From an uncultured Clostridia bacterium (GTDB lineage Bacteria > Bacillota > Clostridia > Oscillospirales > Acutalibacteraceae), in contig CALWIU010000045.1 of assembly GCA_944380845.1 (NCBI GenBank), positions 164 through 64,163 of the forward strand: 64,000 nt of DNA, read 5' to 3'. Below are positions 13,121 through 59,989 of the stretch, piece after piece. A program made the position numbers and the translations under genes. The first letter of the stretch is position 1. Each line of letters opens with the position of its first letter. The notes beneath the pieces are model-generated. The model saw nothing but the letters and a program-made list of their open reading frames with translations. It was not told where the DNA came from and made no database searches.

Positions 13121-13185
13121 GTTTTTCCCTGCGCCGTGAGTTTTTCGCGGCGCGTTTTTTTCAGTGCAGCAAAAGGAGTCAAGTT

Positions 13186-14700: not shown

Positions 14701-14734
14701 GGCGTTTTTCTGCCTTATGGATCAGGAAGTCTGT

Positions 14735-14780
14735 GCCGGAGCAATGCTTTTCTTTTGCTCCGGCGCAGGCTGTTGTTTTT
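14735..14780 (+). terminator. Hairpin terminator after gpmI
   Basis: 10-bp stem GCCGGAGCAA / TTGCTCCGGC (14735-14744 / 14755-14764). A T-run follows about 10 nt later (GTTGTTTTTT). Confidence 0.5.
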
Positions 14781-14909
14781 TATACCGAATGAAATAACCG
14801 CTGCCGTGGAGACATGGCAGGTGTCCGGTTGTGTGAAATATTTGTGTGAAATTCTAAAAATTGCCATCTTTTTTGTCGGTATTTCTAATATTTTCTATAG
14901 ATGTTATGC

Positions 14910-14938
14910 TTGACTTTTTCCTGAACATGGTGTAGAAT
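14910..14938 (+). promoter_or_regulatory. Sigma-A-type promoter
   Basis: TTGACT, 17 nt, TAGAAT, with TG at the extended -10 position. Upstream of the bare-dockerin gene. Confidence 0.6.
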
Positions 14939-14996
14939 ACAGCTTGAAAGTAACTTTGTTGCTTCAAAGTCTATTTATTTGTACGGAGGAAAAGAA

Positions 14997-15569
14997 ATGA
15001 GAAAAAGTTCTAAAAGCCTTTTGGCTGCAATTGTTTCTGTTGTCCTTGTCCTGTGCATGAGCATGGTCGTTGTCTTCACGGCATTTGCGAATGACGCTCC
15101 CGTCGTTGCTGTTGAGCCGACGACTGCGGAAGGAACGACGGCTGCTGCCGACGATTCTACCGTTCCTGCTGAACCCGAAGAGACAACTACCGCTGTTGCT
15201 GAGCCCACCGAGCCCGTTGAGCCGGATGAAACCACAACGGATGCTGCTGATACCACTGAGCCCGTTGACCCGGTTGTCGGTAAAGTCGGCGATGTCAACA
15301 AGGACGGCGTGATTAACACCACTGACGCTCGTCTTGCACTTCGTATTGCTGTTGCTCTTGAGCATGCTGATGAACTTCAGCTGATCCTTGCTGATGCCAA
15401 CGGCGATATGTATGTAAAGAGCGGCGACGCCCGTATGATCCTGAGATATGCTGTACAGCTTTCTAACAGCGATGACTGCATCATCGGCAGCGATGTCGTA
15501 GCGAGCCAGGTCGCTGAGGATGGCGTAACGGCTGTTAACGATGTCAGCGAGGTTGTTACCGCTGCGTAA
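14997..15569 (+). CDS. Secreted dockerin-only protein (signal peptide, Thr/Pro/Glu linker, dockerin)
   Basis: MRKSSKSLLAAIVSVVLVLCMSMVVVFTAFA signal peptide. Low-complexity EPTT/EPVE linker. Two dockerin Ca-loop/helix segments, GDVNKDGVINTTDARLALRIAV and ADANGDMYVKSGDARMILRYAV (nt ~15288-15461). GGAGG RBS. Confidence 0.8.
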   Translation: MRKSSKSLLAAIVSVVLVLCMSMVVVFTAFANDAPVVAVEPTTAEGTTAAADDSTVPAEPEETTTAVAEPTEPVEPDETTTDAADTTEPVDPVVGKVGDVNKDGVINTTDARLALRIAVALEHADELQLILADANGDMYVKSGDARMILRYAVQLSNSDDCIIGSDVVASQVAEDGVTAVNDVSEVVTAA

Positions 15570-15640
15570 GAACGGCTGTTGACTGACAGATTCGTTCTTT
15601 GTTTGGCAGTCTGCGTACTGCTTACTTAACTTTGCTTAAA

Positions 15641-15671
15641 AAACGGTTTGCTTTGGCAAACCGTTTTTTTT
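15641..15671 (+). terminator. Rho-independent terminator
   Basis: ACGGTTTGC / GCAAACCGT stem, 4-nt loop, T8 tail. Confidence 0.8.
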
Positions 15672-15771
15672 GTGCTCTTTTGCTTTTTGTTAGAAAATTA
15701 CGAAATCTATTGCAGATAATAAAAAAATATGGTATTATTTTCTTATCTGACAAAGAAATCGAGGGGTCAAT

Positions 15772-17187: not shown

Positions 17188-17188
17188 A

Positions 17189-19120
17189 ATGAAAAAGAAT
17201 TGGCGTAACTTTCTGGCAGCCGGCCTGGTGCTCGCGCTGCTGCTGAGCTCTTTGCCGCTTTCGGCAGGCGCGTCGGAGTGGTCGGATAATCCGGTGGTCC
17301 TGCTGCCCGGATACAGCTCTTCCGCTTTGGAAAAGGTGAATGCGGACGGCACAACGGAACAGGTCTGGGGTGTGGATACCGATGCGATCCTGCAAGCCGC
17401 ACTGTCGCGTATTGCGCAGCTTGCCGTGGGGCTGGGACTGGCTGCTTCCGGCAGTGATCCGGCTTATCTTGCGAAAATCGTCGGTGAGGAATCGTATGCG
17501 ATTTTGGACGGCGTGCGCTGTGCGCCGGACGGAAGTTCGGTTTATGATGTGCATACGGTGTACAGCGAGCCGGAAACGACCAACAACGCCTATTATCTGG
17601 CGCATCCGGACGAGAGCTGGGCAATGTATGAAAGCGATATCATGGGGGATCTGGGCGAGCTTGTCGATCCGGGAATGCTGTTTAATTTTAATGTGGATTT
17701 CCGCATGGGCGCGATCGATTGTGCCGAACAGCTTCATGTGTATATTCAGAAGGTTTTGGCGTATACCGGTAAAGAGAAGGTCAATCTGCTGGCAATCAGC
17801 CACGGCGGGCAGGTCGCCGGAACCTATTTGAGTCTGCACGGCACGGAAGGGCTTGTCGATCATGCGCTGCTCGTTGTGCCGGCGCTGGGCGGCGCCGGTC
17901 TGGCCTATGATTTTTTGAACCGGGATATTGACTTTGATGAGCAGACTCTGGTAAAATTTATTGAGCACGGATTTATGAGCGAGACGGATTATCACTGGCT
18001 TGTCCGTGCGGAAGCGACGGGTTTTTTAGATGATGTTCTGTATGAACTGATCCCGTATTTTCTGGATTCGGTGCTGTATTGGGGCAGCATTTGGGACTTT
18101 ATTCCCACTGCGTATTACGAAGAGCTGAAAGCGCGGTATCTGGATGAAACACAGTCTGCACAGCTCATCGAAAAATCAGATCGGATGCACGAGCAGATCA
18201 TGCCGAATTATGCCGAGTCTTTTGCCGCCTGCCGCGCAGCCGGGGTGAAGCTGAACATCATGGCGGGCACCGATCTGCCGATTGTAACCGGACTTCAGCA
18301 GAACTCCGACGCAATCATTACCACGGCATCTTCTACCGGCGCGTCATGCGCGCCTTTTGGTCAGCGGTTTGCCGATGGGTACCGGGGCAAAGGCTGCGGC
18401 GACGCAAGTCACGAACACCTTTCGCCTGCCATGACGGTGGATGCTTCCACTGCGTATTTGCCGGAAAACACCTTCTTTGTGGAAGGGCTGTTTCACGGCA
18501 TGGAATATTGGGATGCGCATACTTTTGAGCTGCTGAAAAAGCTGCTGCTCACCGATGATATCGAGGATGTGCATTCCGACCCTGCTTTTCCGCAGTTCCA
18601 CGCCACGACCAATCCGGAACAGGCGGTCACGGCGTATTTCGATCATAGTCCCGAGGGATATGTATCTGAGGAAGATACCTGCCTGCAAATCAAAAATCTT
18701 TCGTCCAGGTATCCGGTTCTGGTCGTTTCCGTGGATGTCGCCGGGGCAGATCTGGTGATCCCGGGCGGGAAACGGATCGCGCCGGGAGAGACGCTTTCCT
18801 TTGCGGTCAGCGGCGATGTGGGCGAAACGGCAAGACGGAAGGTGCAGGTTAAAATCCATTATTGCACTTCGCTGGAAACCTTTACGCCGGTGGGCGAACG
18901 GACGCTCAGTTTTATGACGCTGGGCAAAACCGACGCCGCCTTTGATCCGCAGAATCCGTATGCCCCGCTGGATGTGATCAAAAGCGCATTTCCGGAAATT
19001 GCCGGCGACCGGGCGGAAAGCGTTTTGACAAAGCTGGGGCTTTTGGAGTTTGTGGAAATGTTCTTTGATATGATCTATACGATTATAAAAAATATTCAAT
19101 TGCTATTTCAGATAGGATGA
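17189..19120 (+). CDS. Secreted alpha/beta-hydrolase, lipase/LCAT-like
   Basis: Start re-set to ATG 17189, 1 nt after the MFS stop: MKKNWRNFLAAGLVLALLLSSLPLSAGA signal peptide. Motifs NPVVLLPGYSSS, nucleophile NLLAISHGG, NSDAIITTAS, GLFHGME. Paralogue of 7298..8803. Confidence 0.65.
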   Translation: MKKNWRNFLAAGLVLALLLSSLPLSAGASEWSDNPVVLLPGYSSSALEKVNADGTTEQVWGVDTDAILQAALSRIAQLAVGLGLAASGSDPAYLAKIVGEESYAILDGVRCAPDGSSVYDVHTVYSEPETTNNAYYLAHPDESWAMYESDIMGDLGELVDPGMLFNFNVDFRMGAIDCAEQLHVYIQKVLAYTGKEKVNLLAISHGGQVAGTYLSLHGTEGLVDHALLVVPALGGAGLAYDFLNRDIDFDEQTLVKFIEHGFMSETDYHWLVRAEATGFLDDVLYELIPYFLDSVLYWGSIWDFIPTAYYEELKARYLDETQSAQLIEKSDRMHEQIMPNYAESFAACRAAGVKLNIMAGTDLPIVTGLQQNSDAIITTASSTGASCAPFGQRFADGYRGKGCGDASHEHLSPAMTVDASTAYLPENTFFVEGLFHGMEYWDAHTFELLKKLLLTDDIEDVHSDPAFPQFHATTNPEQAVTAYFDHSPEGYVSEEDTCLQIKNLSSRYPVLVVSVDVAGADLVIPGGKRIAPGETLSFAVSGDVGETARRKVQVKIHYCTSLETFTPVGERTLSFMTLGKTDAAFDPQNPYAPLDVIKSAFPEIAGDRAESVLTKLGLLEFVEMFFDMIYTIIKNIQLLFQIG

Positions 19121-19133
19121 GATGAGGTAACCC

Positions 19134-20768
19134 ATGAAGGAACTGTATTTTGTGAATTCTCTGGAAAATATTTTCCCCGATGAAGTCCCCGGCGGACAAC
19201 TGACGCATATTTCGATGCTTCGCAACGAAAGGTATTCTTTTCAGTTGGTCGTGTATTTGCCGGGCGAGGAAACGACAGTGCGCGTCGAACCGCCGGAAGA
19301 ATTGACAGACTGCCTGCATTTTTATGATGTCAAAGCCATTCCGGTTCATGTGCCGGCAAAGGAAAAGTGTGATGATGATTTTCTGCTGCGCGGCGGCAAG
19401 CCGGGCGACTATCCCGACCTTCTGGTTCCCTGCGACGGCGAAGTGCACTGGCAGGGAAAAGGCTGGCACGCTCTTTGGCTGGAAATCGATCCGGGCGAAC
19501 CGCTTGCCGCCGGACAGCGTGAGCTGTCCTTTGCGGTCGAATTGCCGAGGGGCAAGACGACGCTTTCGCTGGAATTGTCGGTGGTGGATGCGCTGCTGCC
19601 GGAACAGGAGCTGGTCTGCACCCACTGGTTTTATTGCGACTGTCTGGCGGATCAGTACGAAGTGCCGATTTTTTCCGAGGAACACTGGCAGCTCATTGAA
19701 AAGTATTTGCGTTTTGCCGTTCAGCACGGCATCAACATGATTTTAACGCCCCTGTTTACACCGCCTCTGGATACGGCGATCGGGTCGGAGCGTCCGACGG
19801 TTCAGCTTGTCGGAGTGACGGCGGAAAACTACGGGTATTCTTTTGATTTTTCGCTTTTGGAACGCTGGATCGATCTTTGCAATGCCTGCGGGGTACGGTA
19901 TTTTGAAATGTCCCACCTCTTTACCCAGTGGGGCGCCAAACACGCGCCGAAGATCGTTGCCAAAACCGCCGAAGGGGAAAAACGCCTGTTTGGATGGGAA
20001 ACCAATGCAGCCGGCGCGGAATACAAGCATTTCCTGAAATGCTTCGCGAAGGAGCTGGATCGTTTTCTTGCGGAAAAAGGCGTCAGGGAGCGCTGTTTCT
20101 TCCATGTTGCCGATGAACCGGGATTTAAGGACTTTATCAGCTACCGCAGCGCCTCCAGGATCATTTCGGAGTGCTTTGGAGAATATCGCAGCATCGATGC
20201 GCTGTCGGAGTACCTTTTCTATCAAAGCGGTCTGACCAAAACGCCGATTCCCTGCATTGACGCCATCGAAGCGTTTAAAGGCAGAGTGCCGGAGCTTTGG
20301 ACTTATTATTGCAGCGTTCCGGCAAAGGACAATTATGTCAATCGCTTTTTGTATTATCCATCGGTTCGCAACCGTGCGCTGGGCGCGGCGCTGTACCGCT
20401 ATAACTGCAAAGGCTTTTTGCATTGGGGATATAACTTCTGGTATACCGTGCTTTCCAAAGGCCGGATCGATCCTTTCACCGACACCGCTTCCGGCGGCGG
20501 CTTCCCGGCTGGCGACGGTTTTGTGGTGTATCCGGGCAAGGACGGACAGCCTTTGCCGTCTCTGCGCCTGAAAGTTTTTTACGATGCGTTGCAGGATCAG
20601 CGGGCGCTTGCCTGTCTGGAAAGCCTTGTAGGCAGAGAACAGGCGCTTCAGACGCTCGCCGATCAATGGGAAGGCTATTCCTTCCGCAGTTATCCGAAAA
20701 CCGGAGAAGATCTGATTGCTCTGCGTGAGGCGGTCAACGATGCGATTGCCGGCGCTGTCAGGAAGTGA
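19134..20768 (+). CDS. DUF4091 / glycoside hydrolase family 123-like protein (cytoplasmic)
   Basis: FHVADEP (Asp-Glu pair as in GH123-type catalytic centres), HLFTQWGAKHAPKI, GFLHWGYNFW, FPAGDGFVVYPG. No signal peptide. Confidence 0.6.
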   Translation: MKELYFVNSLENIFPDEVPGGQLTHISMLRNERYSFQLVVYLPGEETTVRVEPPEELTDCLHFYDVKAIPVHVPAKEKCDDDFLLRGGKPGDYPDLLVPCDGEVHWQGKGWHALWLEIDPGEPLAAGQRELSFAVELPRGKTTLSLELSVVDALLPEQELVCTHWFYCDCLADQYEVPIFSEEHWQLIEKYLRFAVQHGINMILTPLFTPPLDTAIGSERPTVQLVGVTAENYGYSFDFSLLERWIDLCNACGVRYFEMSHLFTQWGAKHAPKIVAKTAEGEKRLFGWETNAAGAEYKHFLKCFAKELDRFLAEKGVRERCFFHVADEPGFKDFISYRSASRIISECFGEYRSIDALSEYLFYQSGLTKTPIPCIDAIEAFKGRVPELWTYYCSVPAKDNYVNRFLYYPSVRNRALGAALYRYNCKGFLHWGYNFWYTVLSKGRIDPFTDTASGGGFPAGDGFVVYPGKDGQPLPSLRLKVFYDALQDQRALACLESLVGREQALQTLADQWEGYSFRSYPKTGEDLIALREAVNDAIAGAVRK

Positions 20769-21740: not shown

Positions 21741-22955
21741 ATGAAGATCAATGAAAACTTTCTGAAAATTCAGAACAATTACCTTTTTTCTGATATCGCC
21801 AAAAAGGTTGCCGCTTATAAAGAAGCCAATCCGACGGCGGATATCATTCGTCTGGGCATCGGCGATGTGACCCGTCCGCTGCCGAAAAAAGTAACGGAAG
21901 CGATGAAAAAAGCGGTCGAAGAGCAGGAAAGCGCCGAGCATTTCCGTGGTTATCCGCCGGAATACGGGTATGATTTCCTTAGAAGCGCCATCAACCGCCA
22001 TGATTTCGCTTCGCGCGGGGTCACGCTTCAGGACGATGAAATTTTTGTCAGTGACGGCGCCAAAAGCGACTGCGGCAATATCGGTGATATTTTCGATCAG
22101 GATAATCTGGTTGCCATTTGCGATCCGCTGTACCCTGTGTATGTAGATACCAATGTCATGGCCGGGCGCTCCGGTGATTTGGTGGACGGGCACTGGAACC
22201 GGTTCTATTATATGCCCTGCACGGCGGAAAACGGCTTTTTGCCTGCGCTGCCGGACTGCAAGGTCGATCTGATCTATTTGTGCTTCCCCAACAACCCCAC
22301 CGGTATGGCCATTACCAAAGATGAGCTTGCCAAATGGGTCGATTACGCCAACCGCAACGACAGCGTCATTCTTTATGACGCCGCGTATGAAGCGTACATC
22401 ACCGAAGAAAATGTTCCGCACAGCATTTTTGAGATCGACGGCGCCAAAACCTGCGCCATTGAATTCCGCAGCTTTTCCAAAACCGCCGGCTTTACCGGCG
22501 CACGCTGCGCCTATACCATTGTTCCTCACGAGCTGAAGCGCGGCGGCGTCGAGCTGAACGCTTTGTGGGCGCGCCGTCAGGCCACCAAGTTCAACGGCGT
22601 TTCCTATATCACACAGCGCGGCGCGGAGGCGGTCTTTACCGAAGAAGGACAAAAACAGGTGCAGGAAAACATCGCCTATTATCGTCGGAACGCCAAAGTC
22701 ATTGCCGAAGGGCTGAAAAAAGCGGGCTTTTCGGTTTACGGCGGCGTCAATTCCCCCTATATCTGGCTGCGCGTACCGGATGGCATGACTTCATGGGAAT
22801 TTTTTGATTTGCTTCTGCACAAAATGCAGGTTGTCGGTACGCCCGGTTCGGGATTCGGCGCTGCGGGCGAGGGGTATTTCCGTCTGACGAGCTTCGGAGA
22901 TGCGGAAAAAACCAAAGAAGCGGTCGAGCGCATTACCGCGTATTTTCAAAAATAA
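21741..22955 (+). CDS. dapL: LL-diaminopimelate aminotransferase
   Basis: [11 protein letters not shown]...[14 protein letters not shown]-terminus and [10 protein letters not shown] (PLP lysine), characteristic of DapL. Adjacent to dapF. Confidence 0.9.
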
Positions 22956-23011
22956 ACGGGAAAATTGACCAAAAAAAGAAGGATTTGTTCCCGCAAAAAC
23001 GCATATAATTT

Positions 23012-23040
23012 GAAAAAATGATTGACATATCCTTCTGTCC
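23012..23040 (+). promoter_or_regulatory. Consensus sigma-A promoter
   Basis: TTGACA, 17 nt, TATAAT; both hexamers are perfect. Confidence 0.65.
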
Positions 23041-23129
23041 GTTATATAATTCTATTGTATATAATGCAGTTATGCTCTGTATTTATCGATTTTCTCTGTT
23101 TCAACTAAAAAACGGAAGGAAGTTTTCTG

Positions 23130-25106
23130 ATGAGGAACCAAAAGACTTTTGCCTTAAGGCTGGTCGCGTTTCTGCTGGTCTTTTGCGTTGCAGTCGGTGT
23201 TTTGCCAGTGGCGGCATCGGCGGCTGACAGTACGCTGACAGCAGTTTCGCCCGCTGAGGCAGTGGGGGAATATGTGATTCCGGACGGCACCACCGCTATC
23301 GCGGATAATGCCTTTGCCGGATGTACGGAATTGACAAGCGTTGTCATTCCTGCCTCCGTTAAAACCATCGGCGCGAATGCGTTCCAGGGATGCACATCCC
23401 TTGCAACGGTGAAATTTAACGGCGTGCTGGATCGTGTGGGGCTGTTTGCTTTTAATGATACGCTCTGGTATAAAAACTATCCCACCGACTTCATTTATGC
23501 TTCCTCTCCGAGCGGCTTTAATGTCCTGATCGGTTATAAGGGCACGGATGAGAATGTTGCCATTCCCGCTTCCACCACCGTTATCGGTGAGGGCGCTTTC
23601 TACGGCAACACGACCATTAAATCCGTTATTATCCCGCTGCGTACCACCAAAGTTTCCGATTACGCGTTTTACGGCTGCACGAACCTTGCGGATATCACCG
23701 TCCGCGGTGCGCTTACCGACTGCGGCTTCATGGCGTTTGAGGGCACGGCGTGGCTGGATTCCTATGCCGGTGAATTCATCATCTCCGGTACCATGCTCAT
23801 TAAATACAACGGCGACAAAGATGTTGTTTATGTTCCCAATACGGTGACGCGCATTGCTTCCTATGCGTTCTATGACTGCAAGAGCGTAACGACGGTTCGT
23901 GTTCCCGCTTCCGTAACCGATATCGGCGTAAACGCCTTCTATCTTTACAACGACGGCGGCAACAACAAATACGCTGAAATTTATTGCTGGGAAGATACCT
24001 ACGCGGAAACCTACGCCAAACAGAACGGCCTGTCCATTTCTTCGTACCTGAACTATCCGGGCGATGTGGATTCCAACGGCAGCGTTCAAACCGCTGACGC
24101 GCGCGTTGCTCTTCGTTACGCCGCCAAGCTGGAACGCGATCTGACGGATGCACAGTTCCTTGCCGCTGACATCGGCTGCGATGGAAACATCACTTCTTCC
24201 GATGCGCGTTTGATCCTTCGCATGGCAGTCGGCCTTGCCGAGTATACCCCCGAGGATCTGCTCTTTAAGCCCAATACGGATTTTGAAATCCTGATGGCGT
24301 ACACCGAAGCGGTTCGCCTTGCCTATATCAAGGAAGCCGGTTATAAACTCACGGAGTATCAGAGCATTGACGATGTAAAGGTCGGTCCGTCCTTTATCCG
24401 CACCGCGCTGAACAATCCCTTTAAAACCGACTTGACCAAAGAAGACAAAGCGGAAGCACAGACGCTCTCTTCCGATACCGTCGAAGCACTGGAAAAGCTG
24501 TATCTTTGCGACTTGACCAACAATTCCATTATCAAGGATGCAAAATGCGAGCTGACCGAAAGCGATAAATATTATATCACCATCACCTTGAACGATGAAG
24601 TGGATGTCAGCGACACCGATTCTCTGACCCGCTGCATGTTCCCGGTGGTCGGCAGAGAAGATATGGATCGCCTGCTGAATGAAGAGGAAGGCACCTGGTA
24701 TCACGCTTCTTCTACCGATTTTAATTATAAGATTACTTACCAGAATTGCACATTGAACGCCATCGTCGATGTTATGACCGGCAATATCGAAGACATTGAA
24801 ATGAAGATGGGTTATCGTTTCGATGTCTGGGGTCAGATTTACCTGACGAAAATTCACAACAGAGACGATAAGAACGATCCTGTTGGTTACGCCACCAGAA
24901 CCGATACGGTAAAATATACCGATTTCGATTACACGGTGAAAGAATTTACCACCACCACGACTGAACCGACAACCGTTTATGAAGGAGAAGATCCGGAAAA
25001 TCCCGTAACGGTTGTGCCGACCACCAAAAACAATGACGCCGGCAACTTCCTTGCCGGAATCGGCGATGCGCTGGGCGGTATCTTCGGCAGTCTGATCGGC
25101 GGCTGA
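23130..25106 (+). CDS. Secreted BspA-type leucine-rich-repeat protein with internal dockerin and unknown C-terminal domain
   Basis: Signal peptide. Repeated IPxxVxxIGxxAFxGCxxL units (LRR_5/BspA type). Dockerin GDVDSNGSVQTADARVALRYAA...ADIGCDGNITSSDARLILRMAV (nt ~24060-24236). About 290 aa of unassigned sequence, a TTTTEPTT linker and a Gly-rich tail GNFLAGIGDALGGIFGSLIGG. Confidence 0.8.
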   Translation: MRNQKTFALRLVAFLLVFCVAVGVLPVAASAADSTLTAVSPAEAVGEYVIPDGTTAIADNAFAGCTELTSVVIPASVKTIGANAFQGCTSLATVKFNGVLDRVGLFAFNDTLWYKNYPTDFIYASSPSGFNVLIGYKGTDENVAIPASTTVIGEGAFYGNTTIKSVIIPLRTTKVSDYAFYGCTNLADITVRGALTDCGFMAFEGTAWLDSYAGEFIISGTMLIKYNGDKDVVYVPNTVTRIASYAFYDCKSVTTVRVPASVTDIGVNAFYLYNDGGNNKYAEIYCWEDTYAETYAKQNGLSISSYLNYPGDVDSNGSVQTADARVALRYAAKLERDLTDAQFLAADIGCDGNITSSDARLILRMAVGLAEYTPEDLLFKPNTDFEILMAYTEAVRLAYIKEAGYKLTEYQSIDDVKVGPSFIRTALNNPFKTDLTKEDKAEAQTLSSDTVEALEKLYLCDLTNNSIIKDAKCELTESDKYYITITLNDEVDVSDTDSLTRCMFPVVGREDMDRLLNEEEGTWYHASSTDFNYKITYQNCTLNAIVDVMTGNIEDIEMKMGYRFDVWGQIYLTKIHNRDDKNDPVGYATRTDTVKYTDFDYTVKEFTTTTTEPTTVYEGEDPENPVTVVPTTKNNDAGNFLAGIGDALGGIFGSLIGG

Positions 25107-25115
25107 ACCTGCTCT

Positions 25116-25144
25116 ATCTGCGGGCTTGCAAACAGCCCGCAGAT
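25116..25144 (+). terminator. Hairpin after the LRR gene (no U-tract)
   Basis: 10-bp stem ATCTGCGGGC / GCCCGCAGAT. It is followed by an A-rich rather than T-rich tail, so terminator function is uncertain. Confidence 0.4.
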
Positions 25145-25277
25145 GTAAAAAAATTTCGGGAATCATTTGCTTGAATCGCGAAAAAATAGGATCGGGAGCG
25201 TTGTCTCCTTGTAAAAAGCGCACAATATTATTGTGTCATTTTTGGCGGATTTTATGCGTTGCATGTGGAAAAAGTGT

Positions 25278-25306
25278 TTGACATTTGCGAATCGGTATGA
25301 TACAAT
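25278..25306 (+). promoter_or_regulatory. Near-consensus sigma-A promoter of the cohesin gene
   Basis: TTGACA, 17 nt, TACAAT. About 120-nt leader to the ATG at 25427. Confidence 0.65.
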
Positions 25307-25426
25307 TAAGCGTGTTCAGACACTGAGGCACGCATTCGCCGCCCAGGTCTAAATGCTTTACTGTATATAAATGAATCGTCAACCGGCGGTTCTTTATATA
25401 AAAAATTTTCAAAGGAAGGTTCTAAA

Positions 25427-26086
25427 ATGAAACTTGCAAAAAAAGTACTTGCTTGTGTTGTCGTTCTTGCGATCATGAGCACACTTGCCATCAGTGCTTT
25501 CGCTGCTGATGCTTCCTTGGTTCTGTCGGCTGATAAGAGCGCCGCTGAAATCGGCGACACCATTACCGTGGATCTTTCCATGAGCAATGCTACTGGCCTT
25601 GAGAATCTTGGTTTGTTCGTCAGCTACGATGATGCTGTTCTTCAGCTTGAGTCTGTCGCTTCTTCTAACGACAACGCGATTGCTGAGCAGAACGATGCCG
25701 GTGATGTTAGTGTTGGTTATATGAACATGAACTCCAACTCTAACGCTGACCTTGCTCTTGCGAAAATGACCTTCAAGGTTATCGCTGAAGGCAATGCGAA
25801 GATCACTGCTGCTCTCATCACTGATGACAATGGTGAAGCTGATATCGCTGGTGTTACCGTTGGTTCCACCTCCACCTCCATCAGCGTAACCGGTACCGAG
25901 AAGACCACTGCTGCTCCCGACGAGCCCAGTGCTGCTCCTTCTGATACCACCGCTGCTCCTGCTGGCGACGATACCACGAAACCCGCTGACGAAATTCCTG
26001 CTACCGGCGACGCTGGTATTGCTGTAGCCGCTGGCCTTGTTGTTCTTGCTGGCGCTGCTTTCGTTGCTTCCAAGAAAAGAAAATAA
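25427..26086 (+). CDS. Cell-wall-anchored single-cohesin protein (ScaE-like anchoring scaffoldin) with IPATG sortase signal
   Basis: Signal peptide ...AISAFA. Cohesin-like module (GDTITVDLSMSNATGLENLGLFVSYDDAVLQLESV ... LAKMTFKVIAEGNAKI). Thr/Pro/Ala linker. IPATG (25994-26008), then hydrophobic AGIAVAAGLVVLAGAAFVA and KKRK. Confidence 0.75.
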   Translation: MKLAKKVLACVVVLAIMSTLAISAFAADASLVLSADKSAAEIGDTITVDLSMSNATGLENLGLFVSYDDAVLQLESVASSNDNAIAEQNDAGDVSVGYMNMNSNSNADLALAKMTFKVIAEGNAKITAALITDDNGEADIAGVTVGSTSTSISVTGTEKTTAAPDEPSAAPSDTTAAPAGDDTTKPADEIPATGDAGIAVAAGLVVLAGAAFVASKKRK

Positions 26087-26113
26087 TCTCCGGTAACGGG
26101 TGATTAACAAAAA

Positions 26114-26139
26114 GGGGTCTGTTTCAGATCCCTTTTTTT
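26114..26139 (+). terminator. Rho-independent terminator 1 after the cohesin gene
   Basis: GGGGTCTG / CAGATCCC stem (one G-U pair), 3-nt loop, T7. Confidence 0.75.
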
Positions 26140-26142
26140 GTA

Positions 26143-26179
26143 TTGCTGTTTCTTTTTACAGGAAACAGCAATTTTTTTT
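26143..26179 (+). terminator. Rho-independent terminator 2 (tandem)
   Basis: TTGCTGTTTC / GAAACAGCAA 10-bp stem, T8 tail. Confidence 0.8.
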
Positions 26180-26297
26180 GTTTTCTCGCCGAATAACGAC
26201 GCGCAGCGTACCACCAAAAACAGGGGGTAAGGGTTGTAAGCCCATATTGGGACGAGAAGCACGCGCAATGGTTGTTTGCACGAGTTGCGTCATGCTG

Positions 26298-26684
26298 AGC
26301 ATAAAAGATCGGTTATACAAAAAAGAGCAGCGAGGTCTGGCATAAAAAACGGTGGCTCTGGTATAAATGGTAGATCTGTGTCGAGCGATGCGGATCAACT
26401 GCGAGAAAAGGGAGCGGGCAGTGTCAAGCATAAAAGATCGGTTGTGCCAAAAAAGAGCAGGAAATTTGGTATAAGAAATCGACGCACTCTGGTATAAATG
26501 GTAGGTCTGTGCCGAGCAAAGCGGATCAACTGCGAGAAAAGGAGCGGCAGTGACGAGTATAGTAAATCAGTTGCGCCAAAATAAGAGCGGGGAGGTCTGA
26601 CATAAAAATCGGCGGTGAAGAAGAAAATAGCAGGTCTTTGCAGTATATGGAAGTTGAACTGCCCGTGTATGGCGGTGATACCGG
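26298..26684. repeat. Imperfect tandem repeat, 3 units of 129 bp
   Basis: Units start at 26298, 26427 and 26556. Shared blocks are AGCATAAAAGATCGGTT, AAAAAGAGCAG, CTCTGGTATAAATGGTAG(A/G)TCTGTG and GCGGATCAACTGCGAGAAAAGG. Units 1 and 2 are clearly similar; unit 3 is more degenerate. No intact ORF spans the units. Confidence 0.85.
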
Positions 26685-27054
26685 CAGAACCATAGTCAGG
26701 GAAAAAGAATGTTTGGCGCATCTGTTTGTCAATATAAAATGTTTTTTCCGATGTCTATAGGTAGCAAGTGTTTTGTGCTTTCAGAAGACAGATGCCGCAA
26801 AACAGCCGTTCTTTTCTTTTAAAACAGTGTTTTTTATCCGAAAGGACGGCATTCGCTAAAAGAAGGGAATAACAATAAAGACTGGATAAAAAACAGTGTG
26901 GAAGGTTATCATGCTTTTTCGACTCAATAAGCAAAACCACGGGTATAACGGAAAGGGAATGCACAGGAAAGGGATTCTCCATTTTTGGAAGGTATTGTAC
27001 AGAAGCAGATGCAGTTGACTCGACAATAACCGGTTCCCTAACAATGTCTTTTGC

Positions 27055-27089
27055 AGGTAAAAATTGCCCCGAAGCGGGGCTTCGGGGCA
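27055..27089 (-). terminator. Rho-independent terminator of the amidase gene
   Basis: CCCCGAAGC / GCTTCGGGG stem (27067-27088). On the minus strand it is followed by AATTTTTAC. Confidence 0.7.
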
Positions 27090-27175
27090 GCTTCCGTCAG
27101 CAGCAGGTATCTATGCCGGATCAGGGAATGCTGTTATTTTGCGGCCTGTGTGACGGAAGCAGAAAGCGGCAGGCT

Positions 27176-27922
27176 TTACGAATCAAGTTTGGTGGCTTCA
27201 CGCAGGATCTCGCGGGCGTCGGAGGTGGTTACCTTCCCGTCATTATTCATATCCGCAGCTTCTTCCGCTTCCGCCGTCAGTTTTTCCAATGCGGTTGCCG
27301 CACGCAGCGCCAGACGCGCGTCAGCGGTGGTTACTTTCCCATCGCCGTTGACATCGCCTTTCCGCCGTTCTTTGTTCCATGGAACGCCCACAATTTCACA
27401 AAGGCTCTTTGCGATGGCGTCTGCGGTCTTGTCAAACGAGCGATCCCACGCGGTATTGTCCTTCGTGGATGTGATAAAGCCCAGTTCCAACAGACCCGAT
27501 GCACATTTCGTGTATTTATTGACGGCAAAATCCGTGTAGGAAGGCGCGCCTTTTTTTACGCCGCGGTTTCGCAGACCGTCTGCTTCACACGCCGCCCGCA
27601 GAATTTTTGCCGCTTTTTCAACGGTTTTTTCGGTGGCGTCGCTTTTTACCCAAATTTCGTTCCCGGTCGCGTCCGGGGACGCGGAATTGCGGTGAATCGA
27701 CAGATAATATTGCGCGCCCCAGGCGTTGGATTCCGCTGTGCGGTCATTAAGCTTCTTTTCCGTGTCGTCCGTACGGGCGTATTTTACCGACACGCCGCGT
27801 TCCGTCAGCCGTTTGCCGACAGCAAGGGTCATTTTCAGCACATCGTCTTTTTCTTTTCGTTTGCCGCTGCCGGCGCCGCCGTCCTTGCCGCCGTGTCCGG
27901 CATCCAGATAAATTTTCGCCAT
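27176..27922 (-). CDS. N-acetylmuramoyl-L-alanine amidase (Amidase_3) fused to a C-terminal dockerin; no signal peptide
   Basis: MAKIYLDAGHGGKDGGA..., YLSIHRNS, GLLELGFITS = Amidase_3 (CwlC/CwlD type). C-terminus GDVNGDGKVTTADARLALRAAT...ADMNNDGKVTTSDAREILREAT (nt ~27185-27358). Start re-set to ATG 27922 (GGAGGGAG RBS). Confidence 0.9.
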   Translation of the reverse strand: MAKIYLDAGHGGKDGGAGSGKRKEKDDVLKMTLAVGKRLTERGVSVKYARTDDTEKKLNDRTAESNAWGAQYYLSIHRNSASPDATGNEIWVKSDATEKTVEKAAKILRAACEADGLRNRGVKKGAPSYTDFAVNKYTKCASGLLELGFITSTKDNTAWDRSFDKTADAIAKSLCEIVGVPWNKERRKGDVNGDGKVTTADARLALRAATALEKLTAEAEEAADMNNDGKVTTSDAREILREATKLDS

Positions 27923-28379
27923 AGTCTCCCTCCTTTCAGGCAAAGAGAACTTTGCCCGTCAACAGAATATGGCGGATCCGCGCAGGGGGCAGCATCTGTG
28001 AAAAAGAGGGGAAAAAGAAAGATTGCCGTTCATTAACAGCTTTTTTCTTTTGTTTTCGTGCACACCAGCCATGAAGAAAGCGGCGTGCAAAATGCTTTGC
28101 CGCGGGCTTTCTTTGTATGTAAATGGATTTTCTTTGTATGCAATCGGTCAGAATGGAATCCTGCTTGCGCTTCCGCGCATTTGTTTCCCGCCGTTTGCAG
28201 AATTCGGCATGGAAAAAGTGAATGCAAATCATTTTGGTATTCCTGTTTTGTGACTTTCCGTCTGTTTGTCAGAGAGCAGCCCGTTTTTTAAAACAATTTT
28301 TTTGACCGGAGGCGACAGGTATAATGTTCCGATTTTTGCACATACTACGGGTGAAAGAAATCGGAAAGGATGTTTCGCG

Positions 28380-42100: not shown

Positions 42101-42167
42101 GTAAAAGAATAATTGTGGTATTGTACGGTTTGATCCGATTGTCCAACAAGAAGGGAATGTGCAGTCT

Positions 42168-45100
42168 ATGACAAATGCTTTTTACGGCAGACGCTCTGCT
42201 TGCAGGGTGCTGTCTGTCTTCCTGGCGCTTCTGATGGCGCTCTCCGTTCTTCCGATCGGCCTGGTCAGCGCTACGGCGGCTTCTGCGCCGCTGCGCGTGG
42301 CGACGCTTGCCGATCTCCATTATTTCGCCGAGGCGGATATGGGCAATAAGGACGAAGGCTTCACAGCGGCGATGGCAACCAATAACACCTTGCAGATGGA
42401 CGGGATTCTGGATTCCGTTTTTGCTGCTCTTGAACGCTCGGCGAAAGAAAACGGGCTTCAGGCGGTGCTGATTGCCGGTGACTTGACTTACGAAGGTGAA
42501 AAAAGCGGCCATGAGGCGCTTGCCGCCCGGCTGAAAGCCTTTGAAGAAGAAACCGGGCTTTCCGTCTATGTGATCAACGGCAACCATGATATCAACAATT
42601 CCGGCGCGGCAAAGTATATCGCCGATGAAAACGGGAATTATTACTGGGAATATGCCGATACGGTTACCGCAGAAGAATTCAAAAGTATTTACGCGGATTT
42701 CGGCTACAACGAGGCGATTTCCGTTTATGAACCTCCGGTGGGCGAGGAAGCCGGCGCTTTGTCGTATTCGGCGCATTTGGGCGACGGTTATCGTTTGATT
42801 GCGATCGACGCCGGTAAATATTCTCCCGACAGCACCGAAGCCGGTATTTATGAAAAAGAAACCGGCGGCAGCATTTCCGATTCCCTGATGCAGTGGATCC
42901 TTGCGCAGCTTGCTGAAGCGAAGGCTGCCGGTGAAATTCCCATCGGCATGACGCACTGGAACCTTGGCGATCAGAATTATTTTTCCACAGTGGCTCTTCA
43001 GGGCTTTGTGATGGACAACTGGCAGCAGGATGCGGAAACGCTTGCCGATGCCGGAATGCACTTTGTTTTTACCGGACATACCCATGACAGCGATATTTCT
43101 TCCGTGGTTTCCGATCACGGCGAGACGCTGTATAATATCACCACCTGTTCTTTGGGCAACTACCCGAACCAGTACCGCGAAACGGTCTTTACCCCCGGTG
43201 CGGACGGCAGCGTCAGCGCTTCCTTTGAAAAGCACGACTGCGACGAGGTGCTGCCGGTAACGGCGGCGGGCAAAACATACCCGGTTCCCTTTAGCGCATC
43301 CTCTTTTGCCCTTTGCTACGGCTCAACCCCCATGGAGTATCTTTCCAAACTGATTGAGCCCGGCCTGAGAAGCCTGTTGTCTGATATCAAGGGCGCCGGT
43401 CTGGTGCGCTATATCGAGGATAAGGCGGATTTCTCCCTTTATTCCTATTTTGATGAACTGCTGCACGGCGGTTTGATGATTAACAACCAGAACATTGTTA
43501 CCGCACAGAACCTGATGGGCGTTGTCAATGACATTGCCCAGCAGATCGAAGACCGGTATATTAACGATCCGGATTATACCATTGAGCTGGTCGATACCTT
43601 CCTTCAGACGCTGCTGGACATGCAGATTTCAGAGTATCCCTGCTCAAAATTCGTCAGTGAATACGGCTTCGGCAGCAACTCCCGCCCCGGCAATCTGGGC
43701 GATCTGATGTTCTCGATCTTCGTGTATAAAACCAACGGCAACGAGGATATTTCCGACGATCCCTTTATGCTGGATGTGCTGGATCGTTTGCAGAGCGGCG
43801 AACTGGTCACGGATTTGATCGGCCTGCTGCGCACGGAGGCGATCGACAAGATCATTGTCGATGATTTCCTGTCAAACATCAATTTGAACCTGGCTTCGTT
43901 CTTTGTGGATTTCGGCTCGAACGATGTCAAGCAGATCATCAACTTTGTGAAAAACTACGCGTCCGGCGAGGCTGTGAAAAAGATCATTGAATATTATGTC
44001 AATGAAGAAACCTTGCAGTTGTACAATCAGGTCGCTTCCGAAGGTCTGGCGCTGATTGGTATTCAGGGCGTGGACATTCTGGCGATTGTTTCCGGCCTGA
44101 TCGCAATGATCGGTGAACCGCAAATCGATCTGAGCGATGTGAGCATCCGCAATATTGCCGACACGATCCTTGGTTTCGGCGTTTTGGATCAGTACGGCAA
44201 GAGCCTGGATGAAGTGATCGATTATTTCCTGAACAAATACATTACCGATGATGTAAAACAGGGCGTCGGATATCAGCTTTCTATCATGCTGGAATCCTTT
44301 GTGATGGATTCCAACCCGCAGGAAAAGGGCGATTATGATGTGGTTTATACCTATCAGGGCCCTGTCGCTGTGGAAGCAACGGCGGAAAATCTGCGCAAGC
44401 CTTCGCTGGTTGCGCCCTCTTATGGCAAAGATGCGACGACCCAGTTCAATTTCAGCTGGACGACAAAATATTCTGTCACCGGTACGGACATTGAATTTTA
44501 TCCGGTAACCGGAGACTCGCTGCCTTCCTTCACCGGCACGCCGGTGACCGGCGTCAATGTGATCGCCGACTATGAGCCGCTTACCCGCGAGTATTACGGC
44601 ATCGATTTCGGGATCACGGGATTTTTACCCTACGAGATCCAAACCATCCGTCATACCATTACCCTGACCGGGCTTGAGCCGGGAACGACCTATATGTACC
44701 GGATCGGCAGTGCGGAAAACGGCTGGTGGAGCGATATCGGTTCGTTTACCACTTCCGGCGGCGATGATTCGCAGTTTACTTTCTTCCACATGACCGACAC
44801 GCAGTCTACTTCCCCTGAGCAGTACGAAAACGGCTGGGCAAAGGTGATGCAGGCCGCTTACAGTCTCTATCCCGACGCACGGTTTGTCCTGCATACCGGT
44901 GATTTTGTGGATAACGGCGACAACTTCAAGCAGTGGCAGTGGTTCTTTGATTCGGCTGCCGGCACCATCCTGAATTCGGCGATCATGCCGGTATCCGGCA
45001 ACCATGACGCCTACGGCATGAATGTGCTTGTCAACAACTTCAAGATCAATTATGACGGCGAAGACTATGATATGGATGATCCCTTTGCCGACCTGGACAG

Positions 45101-45983
45101 TTACTTCCAGTACACGGACAGCGGCATCTACTATTCCTTCGATTACAACAACGCGCATTTCGCCATTTTGAACAGCAACGATCTGAAGGAAAACGGTGAG
45201 CTGACCGATGAGCAGCTGGAATGGCTGACCAATGATATGCAGAGCAGTGACGCGGAATGGAAAATCGTTGCTTTCCACAAAGCGGTTTATTCCAACGGCG
45301 ATCACTACAAAGATGACGATGTGGTGGGTCTGCGCGGTCAGCTGGCGACCCTGATGCCGCAGTTGCAGGTTGACCTTGTGCTGAATGGTCACGATCATGT
45401 ATACTTCCGCACCGAGCCGCTGAACAACAATACCGTTGATGCAGACTGCAACCACGATGTGATCATGCAGAACGGTACGGCGATTGTGGAAGCGATGATC
45501 AATCCCGACGGTACGATCTATTCCATCAACGGCAGTGCCGGTGTCAAGAGTTATACGGGGGTTTCCTCAGAAGAAACCAAAGATTATTTCCCGGATGCGG
45601 CGGCAACTTATCCGTCCGATGAACCGATCTTTACGGCGATTACCATCCGTGACAACCAGTTGATCTTTAAATCCTATGCCGTCGGCGATAACAGCGCTTT
45701 GACGGAAATCGATAGCTTCGGCATCATTAAGGACTTTAACGAGCTGAAACGCGGCGATGTGGATTTGAACGGTTATGTCAATTCGACCGACGCCCGGCTG
45801 GCGCTTCGCTTTGCGGTCGGTCTGGATAAGCTGACCGGCAGAAGCCTGATTGCCGGCGATGTGGATGAAAACGGCGTCATCAATTCCACTGACGCCCGCC
45901 TGATTCTCCGTGCCGCCATCGAGCTGGAGCCTTTCGAGAATCCGTATGTTGACGATACCTATGTCAGACCGAATCTGGCATAA
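42168..45983 (+). CDS. Secreted dual metallophosphoesterase (calcineurin-like plus purple-acid-phosphatase-like) with C-terminal dockerin
   Basis: Signal peptide. MPE domain 1: LADLHYF, AGDLTYEG, INGNHD, FTGHTHD. PAP N-terminal FN3-like region: FNFSWTT...PGTTYMYRIGS. MPE domain 2: FFHMTDTQ, HTGDFVDNGD, SGNHD, VAFHKAVYS, LNGHDHVYFR. Dockerin GDVDLNGYVNSTDARLALRFAV...GDVDENGVINSTDARLILRAAI (nt ~45753-45926). Confidence 0.85.
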   Translation: MTNAFYGRRSACRVLSVFLALLMALSVLPIGLVSATAASAPLRVATLADLHYFAEADMGNKDEGFTAAMATNNTLQMDGILDSVFAALERSAKENGLQAVLIAGDLTYEGEKSGHEALAARLKAFEEETGLSVYVINGNHDINNSGAAKYIADENGNYYWEYADTVTAEEFKSIYADFGYNEAISVYEPPVGEEAGALSYSAHLGDGYRLIAIDAGKYSPDSTEAGIYEKETGGSISDSLMQWILAQLAEAKAAGEIPIGMTHWNLGDQNYFSTVALQGFVMDNWQQDAETLADAGMHFVFTGHTHDSDISSVVSDHGETLYNITTCSLGNYPNQYRETVFTPGADGSVSASFEKHDCDEVLPVTAAGKTYPVPFSASSFALCYGSTPMEYLSKLIEPGLRSLLSDIKGAGLVRYIEDKADFSLYSYFDELLHGGLMINNQNIVTAQNLMGVVNDIAQQIEDRYINDPDYTIELVDTFLQTLLDMQISEYPCSKFVSEYGFGSNSRPGNLGDLMFSIFVYKTNGNEDISDDPFMLDVLDRLQSGELVTDLIGLLRTEAIDKIIVDDFLSNINLNLASFFVDFGSNDVKQIINFVKNYASGEAVKKIIEYYVNEETLQLYNQVASEGLALIGIQGVDILAIVSGLIAMIGEPQIDLSDVSIRNIADTILGFGVLDQYGKSLDEVIDYFLNKYITDDVKQGVGYQLSIMLESFVMDSNPQEKGDYDVVYTYQGPVAVEATAENLRKPSLVAPSYGKDATTQFNFSWTTKYSVTGTDIEFYPVTGDSLPSFTGTPVTGVNVIADYEPLTREYYGIDFGITGFLPYEIQTIRHTITLTGLEPGTTYMYRIGSAENGWWSDIGSFTTSGGDDSQFTFFHMTDTQSTSPEQYENGWAKVMQAAYSLYPDARFVLHTGDFVDNGDNFKQWQWFFDSAAGTILNSAIMPVSGNHDAYGMNVLVNNFKINYDGEDYDMDDPFADLDSYFQYTDSGIYYSFDYNNAHFAILNSNDLKENGELTDEQLEWLTNDMQSSDAEWKIVAFHKAVYSNGDHYKDDDVVGLRGQLATLMPQLQVDLVLNGHDHVYFRTEPLNNNTVDADCNHDVIMQNGTAIVEAMINPDGTIYSINGSAGVKSYTGVSSEETKDYFPDAAATYPSDEPIFTAITIRDNQLIFKSYAVGDNSALTEIDSFGIIKDFNELKRGDVDLNGYVNSTDARLALRFAVGLDKLTGRSLIAGDVDENGVINSTDARLILRAAIELEPFENPYVDDTYVRPNLA

Positions 45984-59068: not shown

Positions 59069-59929
59069 TTATAACAGCTGGTTGATGTCATCCAGCACAT
59101 CCATCATTTCCAGAAGCTCGACCTTCTGGCAGGTGGTTTCGTGGGCGTGCATGACCTTCTGCGGTTCAGCGGTGAAGTTCTGGAAATCCAGTTTGGTGGT
59201 GCGGTCGTTCTCCGTCTGCCAAATGCTCAGCAGGTTGATGCCGTCATAATAATAGGTTTCGGTTTTGCCATCGGCGGTCTGGGTGTAAACATCGACCGTT
59301 TTCCCATTCCATTCGCCTTCGGATTTGACATAGCCTTCATCCAGCAGCGCGGCGGGTTTTTTCAAACGGATCATTTCCGTTGCCATTTCCTCGCGGATCG
59401 CTTCCAGATCAAAATGTTCGCTGCCCGGCTCCAGAGAATCGATGATGCGGTTGAGCGCGTCGATATCCTCCATCGTCAGTTCGCAATAGCGGGCGGAGGG
59501 CTCATGGATGAAACGCATTCCATTGTCAGACAACAGAAGTCCCATGGAAGAAGCGCCGTTTTTAATCAGGAACATCAGCTCATCGCCGTTTTGCCCCAGT
59601 CCCATTGTGGTGCCGTCGGCGGTGGTCTCATAATAATAGGAATCATAATAGGTCAGGCTTTCCAGCTTCAGCGCACAGCGCAGGATCAGACGCGCATCGG
59701 CGCTGGTTACCTTGCCGTCGCTGTTGACATCGGCTTTTTGCGCCGTCTGCTCGTCATACGGGTCAAGGCTCAGCGCAAAGCGCAGCACCTGACGGGCGTC
59801 ATCGGTTTTGGTTTGACCGCTGCCGTTGACATCGCCGACAACCGCGAAGGCGGGCAAAACAAAAATCTGTGCGCACAGCAGCGCTGCCGCCGCTACCGCT
59901 GTCAGTTTTTTCAAAAAATGTTTTTTCAT
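59069..59929 (-). CDS. Secreted protein with N-terminal dockerin and a LolA-like/unknown C-terminal domain
   Basis: Start re-set to ATG 59929 (GGAGGAG RBS). Signal peptide ...VLPAFA. Dockerin GDVNGSGQTKTDDARQVLRFAL...ADVNSDGKVTSADARLILRCAL (nt ~59663-59836). The C-terminal domain is paralogous to the lipoprotein at 40351..41235. Confidence 0.8.
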   Translation of the reverse strand: MKKHFLKKLTAVAAAALLCAQIFVLPAFAVVGDVNGSGQTKTDDARQVLRFALSLDPYDEQTAQKADVNSDGKVTSADARLILRCALKLESLTYYDSYYYETTADGTTMGLGQNGDELMFLIKNGASSMGLLLSDNGMRFIHEPSARYCELTMEDIDALNRIIDSLEPGSEHFDLEAIREEMATEMIRLKKPAALLDEGYVKSEGEWNGKTVDVYTQTADGKTETYYYDGINLLSIWQTENDRTTKLDFQNFTAEPQKVMHAHETTCQKVELLEMMDVLDDINQLL

Positions 59930-59960
59930 GGACTTCTCCTCCGTTTTATTTTCTAATGAC

Positions 59961-59989
59961 AGTATAAAGGATTGTTTCTCATTTTGCAA
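59961..59989 (-). promoter_or_regulatory. Sigma-A-type promoter (minus strand)
   Basis: Minus-strand reading: TTGCAA, 17 nt, TATACT. Confidence 0.5.

Follow-up and report, generated by a model that had tools for sequence, protein, structure and literature searches.

What does a single cohesin gene do among five genes for dockerin proteins, and how is its product held at the cell? This question is raised by a 64,000-nt stretch of DNA (hereafter the window) from an uncultured Clostridia bacterium of the Acutalibacteraceae, in which the plus-strand gene at 25427-26086 encodes a 219-aa protein. An earlier note on this DNA had divided the protein into a signal peptide, a cohesin, a linker and an IPATG sorting signal, and this four-part build is borne out by Pfam, AlphaFold2 (AF2) and NCBIfam. 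Sortase-anchored single-cohesin scaffoldins are a known kind of protein, of which the one described here is an ordinary further member. It extends a known solution, the sortase-anchored single-cohesin docking post, to an uncultured lineage of chicken-gut Clostridia, where the dockerin-tagged cargo consists of an adhesin-like leucine-rich repeat (LRR) protein, a wall amidase and phosphoesterases, and not of polysaccharide-degrading enzymes. What is new is how the gene varies: a near-identical leader hairpin, signal peptide and tail surround a cohesin core that is swapped between relatives, while the neighbouring dockerins stay unchanged.

The source organism is present in many chicken-gut metagenomes at ~99% identity, and the identical 219-aa protein is encoded on five metagenome contigs. 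Public matches to its EF-G drop from 89% to 83% and then to 69% identity, those with a name being labelled just 'Clostridia bacterium'. The gene and the parts of its precursor are as follows.

25427..26086, plus strand: coding sequence (CDS) with ATG start, 219 aa; the range includes the stop codon.
25427..25504, plus strand: signal peptide, residues 1-26, with predicted cleavage between AFA and AD, read from the sequence.
25508..25900, plus strand: cohesin module, residues 28-158 (Pfam PF00963, AF2 and Foldseek).
25901..25993, plus strand: linker, residues 159-189, rich in Thr, Pro, Ala and Asp, its composition read from the sequence.
25994..26008, plus strand: sorting motif IPATG, residues 190-194 (NF033846 and TIGR01167 above their cut-offs).
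26009..26083, plus strand: hydrophobic helix DAGIAVAAGLVVLAGAAFVAS and basic stop-transfer tail KKRK (AF2 helix at 199-214).

The assignment of the core to the cohesins is supported by both sequence and predicted structure. Pfam PF00963 matches residues 33-146 (E=7.3e-9, 36.4 bits against a gathering score of 24.1), and the profile of the protein family finds the type II cohesin 3l8q among PDB sequences at E=6.9e-12. An AF2 model of the 219-aa protein built on 33 homologues has a mean predicted local distance difference test (pLDDT) score of 83.5; within it a beta-sandwich spans residues 29-157 with a block pLDDT of 93-98, and its nine main strands form the jelly-roll that defines the cohesin fold. 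When this model was compared with the PDB using Foldseek, the top 34 matches were cohesins, led by 4ums (E=2.3e-8), with the CLIPPER adhesin domain 9ifr as one non-cohesin among the listed matches. The highest target-normalised TM-scores to the model, 0.67-0.72, belong to the cohesins of Clostridium perfringens glycosidases (2vo8, at 0.72; 2jh2; 2w1n). These are also compact (~130 residues) and non-cellulosomal, but they are internal modules of large enzymes that assemble toxin/enzyme complexes and not free-standing wall receptors. Calcium-dependent capture of dockerins is the predicted role of residues 28-158.

Potential partners are encoded close by. Each of the five dockerin proteins of the window was checked individually by Pfam, and all are candidate clients of the cohesin.

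14979..15569, plus strand: small dockerin-only protein (Dockerin_1, 30 bits).
23130..25106, plus strand: BspA-type LRR protein with an internal dockerin, the upstream neighbour (LRR_5, Dockerin_1).
27176..27943, minus strand: Amidase_3 protein with a C-terminal dockerin, the convergent downstream neighbour (Amidase_3, Dockerin_1).
42159..45983, plus strand: double metallophosphoesterase with a C-terminal dockerin (Metallophos, Pur_ac_phosph_N, Dockerin_1).
59069..59989, minus strand: 306-aa protein with an N-proximal dockerin (Dockerin_1, 33.5 bits).

The five dockerins have one signature in common, D-x-[ND]-x-[DN]-G-x-[IV]-x-[ST]-x-DAR-x-x-LR. Pfam finds neither an X-module nor a carbohydrate-active enzyme domain in the five proteins, none of which is carbohydrate-active. 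Among 113 open reading frames (ORFs) of at least 150 aa in the window, Pfam finds Dockerin_1 in five and detects no second cohesin (families matched by at least two ORFs), and when a hidden Markov model (HMM) of the family core was run over 308 ORF segments of the window, the ORF at 25427-26086 was the sole match. The ratio given in the earlier note, one cohesin against five dockerins in 64 kb, therefore stands; either the five dockerin proteins have this single receptor in common or there are further scaffoldins elsewhere.

Both ends of the precursor carry conserved export and sorting features. The signal peptide consists of MKLAKK, a 20-residue hydrophobic stretch and A-F-A, with cleavage before A-D, and has a type I appearance; its region is helical at residues 2-22 in the AF2 model, and M1-K5, A24 and A26 are invariant in the 33 homologues. 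A lipoprotein reading of 'LAC' (residues 8-10) was rejected: the Cys lies too near the N-terminus and is replaced by Val in several orthologues. At the other end, IPATG is followed by 21 mostly hydrophobic residues and then KKRK, so that the whole signal occupies residues 190-219. The NCBIfam model NF033846 (Rumino_NPXTG) matches the last 29 residues over its 30 positions with 29.2 bits against a cut-off of 23.5 and is matched by 32/33 family members, and TIGR01167 scores the signal at 18.2 bits against 15.9. NF033846 is a model of the tail alone and silent on the cohesin, and it has Asn at position 1, where the present protein has Ile. T193 and G194 do not vary among the 33 homologues, at least 90% of which keep P191, and in almost every case the next residue is acidic; across orthologues, TG[D/E] plus the helix is the conserved part of the signal. 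Annotation pipelines have already named the relatives P0023 and P0034 'NPXTG-anchored protein' (NCBI, Prokaryotic Genome Annotation Pipeline), and the Joint Genome Institute uses 'LPXTG-motif cell wall-anchored protein'.

Taken together, Sec export, sortase linkage at Thr193 and dockerin capture are proposed as a joint mechanism, to which we assign a probability of roughly 0.7; the cleavage, the wall linkage, the acting sortase and the dockerins bound are all things that we infer. A self-contained transcription unit with a promoter, a structured leader, a strong ribosome-binding site and two terminators would yield a Sec-exported precursor, which signal peptidase I would cut after AFA (A26). 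The C-terminal helix and KKRK would retain the protein in the membrane, a sortase would cleave T193-G194 of IPATG, and Thr193 would be joined to a peptidoglycan precursor. The acting enzyme would most likely be a clostridial class B-type sortase tolerant of a non-Leu residue at position 1. On a wall stalk of ~31 residues, the 130-residue cohesin would capture secreted proteins through their calcium-dependent dockerins; candidate clients are the LRR adhesin-like protein, the muramoyl-alanine amidase, the phosphoesterase and the two small proteins. Since no candidate client is a carbohydrate-active enzyme, the protein would serve as a general surface-display post like Sca2 of Ruminococcus bromii and not as a cellulosome anchor.

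Several observations weigh against this proposal. Firstly, the Pfam model Gram_pos_anchor (PF00746) scores the tail at 17.8 bits, below its gathering score of 20, and the orthologue L002 barely clears it at 20.8 bits. Secondly, the motif is non-canonical and decays in parts of the family: the Pro is replaced in some orthologues (IKKTG, ITKTG, IKETG) and the Thr is missing in others (IPPLG, GPEAG). Thirdly, the linker is a short stalk of ~31 residues. Fourthly, the window, 36 related loci with 6-kb flanks, 14 further loci and ~20 kb past the window's right end yielded neither a sortase gene (PF04203) nor a TLxTC motif; together these cover a few percent of a genome, so that this negative proves nothing. 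On the side of docking, the amidase-dockerin protein begins directly at its catalytic core (MAKIYLDAGHGG) with no visible signal peptide, and in locus L044, from the closest sampled relative, the dockerins of the two neighbouring genes are almost unchanged while the cohesin core is 34% identical, so a one-to-one pairing is not evident. Although its product shows no signal peptide, the amidase-dockerin gene keeps its convergent position beside the cohesin gene in three species.

The short stalk and the degenerate xPxTG motif would also suit a protein in which the C-terminal helix is a permanent membrane anchor with no sortase cut, the cohesin lying between membrane and wall and holding dockerin proteins such as the amidase near the membrane. 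The helix segment itself is consistent with such an arrangement, as its conservation (66% mean identity, up to 97-100% between relatives) goes far beyond what stop-transfer needs, and scaffoldins with a membrane-helix anchor have been suggested in R. difficilis (bioRxiv 10.64898/2026.02.05.704116). In addition, a phmmer search with the tail alone against 1.84 billion representative proteins returned, at E<=1e-3, matches from the cohesin family alone; the tail sequence is thus family-specific, and the idea that its exact sequence is a widely shared sorting signal was rejected. However, a plain anchor would need neither the invariant T193 and G194 nor the acidic residue that follows them, curated models of sortase signals score above their cut-offs in nearly all family members, and a protein with an IPKTG motif in front of an unrelated helix is encoded in the relative L046. 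We therefore regard permanent membrane anchoring as unlikely, and sortase linkage as the preferred fate of the tail.

Which sortase would read IPATG? The Ile at position 1 had been taken as a possible mark of a dedicated sortase class. Several points could be cited for an Ile-specific enzyme: IPxTG is the commonest motif form in the family; the IPKTG protein of L046 provides a second case; and P4 is regarded as the specificity determinant of Clostridioides difficile SrtB (PMC5118464). Yet orthologues with near-identical tails carry I, V, T, G, H, N or E at position 1, and because this position (and the Pro) varies in this way, the Ile is not diagnostic. The fitting NCBIfam model is moreover named for NPXTG, and no locus-linked sortase gene occurs in ~50 loci. 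An Ile-specific class is accordingly very improbable, and this part of the earlier note falls away. The L046 protein (18859-19434, 191 aa), the second small protein with a sortase-type signal there, lies 8 kb from the cohesin orthologue and consists of a signal peptide, short repeats rich in Asp, Leu and Gly, a Thr/Asn linker, IPKTG, the unrelated helix and KKKEA, without being a cohesin or a member of any Pfam family. As a second IPKTG protein it indicates that the motif serves more than one substrate, which argues that IPATG-type motifs are read by a general enzyme. Clostridial class B sortase offers a precedent, as C. difficile SrtB takes (S/P)PxTG, NPKTG and NVQTG (PMC5118464). It accepts a non-Leu position 1, and in NVQTG even does without the Pro (PMC5118464), although its substrates are unrelated to the window protein; by analogy, SrtB would be the best mechanistic model for IPATG processing.

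The closest functional parallel to a wall-linked docking post appears to be found in R. bromii. R. bromii Sca2 and Sca5 bear sortase signals and have been immunolabelled on the wall (PMC4611034, PMC12663171), and Sca2 uses its cohesin to bind dockerins carried by LRR proteins, peptidases and amylases (PMC4611034, PMC5814915, PMC12663171). Like the window protein, Sca2 combines a cohesin with a sortase signal at the C-terminus, and its host is a non-cellulolytic Clostridia bacterium of the gut. In architecture, and in the kinds of neighbours that carry dockerins, the window locus agrees with Sca2 (PMC4611034). There are also differences: Sca2, a part of the amylosome, has 534 aa and a long stalk, whereas the window protein has 219 aa and a stalk of ~31 residues, and the dockerins of the window sit on no amylase or other glycoside hydrolase. 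By this comparison Sca2 is the functionally closest system, with cargo in the window that is non-cellulosomal, and the locus supports the view derived from R. bromii that cohesin-dockerin pairs form a general surface-display system in gut Clostridia.

The description 'ScaE-like', applied to the protein in the earlier note, holds for its layout and fails for cohesin type and gene context. ScaE of Ruminococcus flavefaciens (PDB 4iu2/4iu3, 9gvb) is attached covalently to the wall through the action of sortase (PMC5301203, PMC4081043), and the two proteins have in common a signal peptide, a single cohesin, a linker and a C-terminal LPXTG-like signal, an arrangement for wall attachment of dockerin proteins. 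The ScaE cohesin is of type III, however, and the family profile reaches the ScaE chains 8ajy and 4iu2 only at E=0.15-0.17, compared with 6.9e-12 for 3l8q, while 9gvb ranks only 44th in the Foldseek ranking of the window cohesin. Furthermore, ScaE of R. flavefaciens and R. champanellensis belongs to a scaC-scaA-scaB-cttA-scaE cluster with XDoc partners, and the window locus has no such cluster. Because cohesin type and gene context differ, the window protein is not a ScaE orthologue.

The family offers a second question, namely why its cohesins differ so strongly within an almost fixed frame. It comprises ~35 proteins of 206-275 residues with a common layout, from gut and rumen metagenome-assembled genomes labelled Acutalibacteraceae, Oscillospiraceae, Ruminococcaceae or Clostridia. 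On average, pairs of members are 64% identical in the signal peptide and 66% in the sorting tail, compared with 24% in the cohesin core and 25% in the linker, which differs in length among homologues and in the AF2 model has a pLDDT of ~50-60 and no secondary structure. Three comparisons between relatives locate the change, where dN and dS are nonsynonymous and synonymous divergence and 'ends' are the signal peptide and tail.

25505..25975, plus strand: segment replaced between relatives, covering the mature cohesin and most of the linker (nucleotide identity of the window against L044).
L004 against L014 (both 6001-6630): flanks 94% identical in amino acids (88-93% in nucleotides), signal peptide and tail 100%, core 34%; dS 0.17-0.25 in the ends and 1.85 in the core.
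L031 (2444-3208) against L034 (2341-3129): flanks 87% identical in amino acids, signal peptide and tail 100%, core 22%; dS 0.09-0.16 in the ends and 1.6 in the core.

Between the window and L044, whose flanking genes are 83-94% identical (LRR-dockerin protein 89%, amidase-dockerin protein 87%), sliding nucleotide identity is 97-98% at 25368-25457, drops to 37-60% at 25518-25975 and returns to 78-88% at 25977-26096. The two cohesin proteins share 49% identity overall; their signal peptides agree at 85%, their tails at 97% and their cores at 34%, and dN is 0.05-0.11 in the flanks and 0.61 in the core. In the more distant L041, the flanks are 66-84% identical to those of the window and yet the core is 69% identical (73% for the whole orthologue). 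The L041 core is thus closer to that of the window than the L044 core despite the flanks, and cohesin and flank distances disagree. Across related species, swapped core alleles are 22-36% identical and signal peptides and tails 97-100%, and the breakpoints are sharp, one lying right after the signal peptide and the other inside the linker. The window's own species displays no core swap: four conspecific assemblies differ at just four CDS positions.

A diversity-generating retroelement or point mutation was rejected as the source of this pattern, given the total divergence, the indels, the saturated synonymous sites and the sharp breakpoints. The data instead imply that the cores are old alleles in a conserved frame, through recombinational replacement or long-kept polymorphism. 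A different fold for the most divergent cores was also considered. Pfam misses the cores of L004, L014, L031 and L034, but core-only hhalign assigns most of these Pfam-missed cores a cohesin probability of 94-98%, and the weakest, that of L031, takes a cohesin fold in a low-confidence model (core pLDDT ~57-86) whose top 25 PDB matches are all cohesins. Since hhalign and the L031 model favour cohesin, this possibility was rejected.

Does the diversity concern dockerin binding at all? In canonical cohesins, strands 8-3-6-5 form the dockerin-binding sheet. The corresponding strands are the least conserved in this family (0.38-0.44 against 0.53-0.60 for the others), and the dockerins of both neighbouring genes are nearly unchanged among the window, L044 and L041, with no co-variation between them and the cohesin core seen in these three. 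A cohesin-fold module that has nothing to do with docking could behave in the same way, as a hypervariable surface antigen, an adhesin for another ligand, or a decoy or target for phage or host antibody; adhesins too have cohesin-like folds, as the match to the CLIPPER domain illustrates. Against this stand the five dockerin proteins of the 64-kb window, which offers them no other cohesin and in which two of the five are encoded right beside the cohesin gene in a conserved order, and the promiscuity of R. bromii cohesins towards most dockerins (PMC4611034), which fits changed cohesins with unchanged dockerins. A wholly non-docking function therefore seems improbable, more so than permanent membrane anchoring, and dockerin capture remains the preferred role. 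The locus still raises the question of what, if not dockerin specificity, selects for cohesin diversity.

One tentative answer, which we hold to be possible though we would lean against it, is that the promoter, leader hairpin, signal peptide, xPxTG tail and terminator form a conserved 'chassis' around a replaceable cohesin cassette. The alleles would be much older than the species; recombination at the conserved ends would swap them (dS 1.6-1.9 in the core against 0.1-0.25 in the ends), and diversifying or frequency-dependent selection would keep them. A possible driver is a non-docking pressure on the main wall-linked protein, for example phage adsorption or host immunoglobulin A; alternatively, the alleles might define docking specificity groups, by analogy with agr groups or pherotypes. 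Such a naturally modular chassis could serve as a ready surface-display scaffold in gut anaerobes. A comparable gene is R. flavefaciens scaC, a single-cohesin scaffoldin gene with many very divergent cohesin types in a conserved frame that can be amplified with conserved primers (PMC3197198). ScaC is a dockerin-bearing adaptor and not a wall anchor, its diversity is described within one species, and the text consulted does not analyse recombination breakpoints or synonymous divergence (PMC3197198).

The conserved frame extends beyond the coding sequence and includes the following control elements.

25278..25306, plus strand: promoter TTGACA-17 nt-(TG)TACAAT (consensus scan 11/12, extended -10).
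25313..25426, plus strand: 5' leader of ~114 nt, its start inferred from the -10 box.
25364..25400, plus strand: leader hairpin TATATAAA-t-GAATCG..loop..CGGTTC-TTTATATA (RNAalifold, 24 loci).
25411..25419, plus strand: Shine-Dalgarno sequence AAAGGAAGG, 7 nt before the ATG, invariant in 24/24 aligned loci.
26109-26137 and 26142-26172, plus strand: two tandem intrinsic terminators, each a hairpin of 13 pairs plus a T run.

In each of the 28 orthologous loci that were inspected (28/28), a TTGAC-N17-TATAAT promoter occupies the corresponding site, and the leaders measure 50-136 nt. In the window, the gene's own near-consensus promoter and its two terminators are confirmed, in line with the earlier view that it appears monocistronic, and with a convergent gene downstream, the transcription unit ends at the cohesin gene. 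Over its last 60 nt the leader matches that of L044 at 97-98%, whereas nucleotide identity to the L044 cohesin core is ~50%, and the promoter-leader region as a whole (25278-25426) is far better conserved than the cohesin core downstream. The leader hairpin, ~20 nt upstream of the ribosome-binding site, has 10 pairs with compensatory changes at 4 of them; 95.8% of its alignment cells are paired, compared with 88.9% in shuffles (0/500 reach the observed value) and 26-62% with slid partners. It may stabilise the mRNA or bind a regulator. Rfam found no family in the leader or the downstream gap, giving only sub-threshold chance matches on the terminators (PyrR, 34 bits against 54). As for expression, three runs labelled 'METAGENOMIC RNA-Seq' (X7, X8, X11) yielded, for window positions 22900-28100, flat-depth contigs of 7-48 kb that look DNA-like and have no transcript ends.

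The genes around the cohesin gene encode DapF, an aminotransferase, the LRR-dockerin protein, the amidase-dockerin protein and an M23 peptidase. The order LRR-dockerin, cohesin, amidase-dockerin is kept in the two related species represented by L041 and L044, and in more distant genomes the cohesin gene stands alone beside a uracil-DNA glycosylase gene. In the window, the 1.09-kb gap between terminators and amidase gene contains an imperfect tandem repeat (26298-26608; 131 bp, 2.4 copies). The same gap measures only ~160-230 nt in L041 and L044, so the repeat-bearing segment is a species-specific insertion; a 189-aa minus-strand ORF has been called over the repeat in the conspecific contigs L038 and L040. 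Downstream of the amidase gene, L041 carries at 12832-19915 a Band_7/zinc-ribbon protein gene and genes for two large TIR_2 proteins with TPR, WD40 and RCC1 repeats, where the window and L044 have the M23 peptidase and RnfD-like genes. The TIR_2 region possibly represents an insertion of defence genes. For the window's own organism, ENA assemblies contain longer scaffolds (ERZ16268120 scaffold_863, 90 kb, and ERZ16268153 scaffold_85, 200 kb; L047, L049, L050), and past window position 64000 the sequence leads to rnpA-yidD-yidC-jag, an indication that the origin region of the chromosome is not far away.

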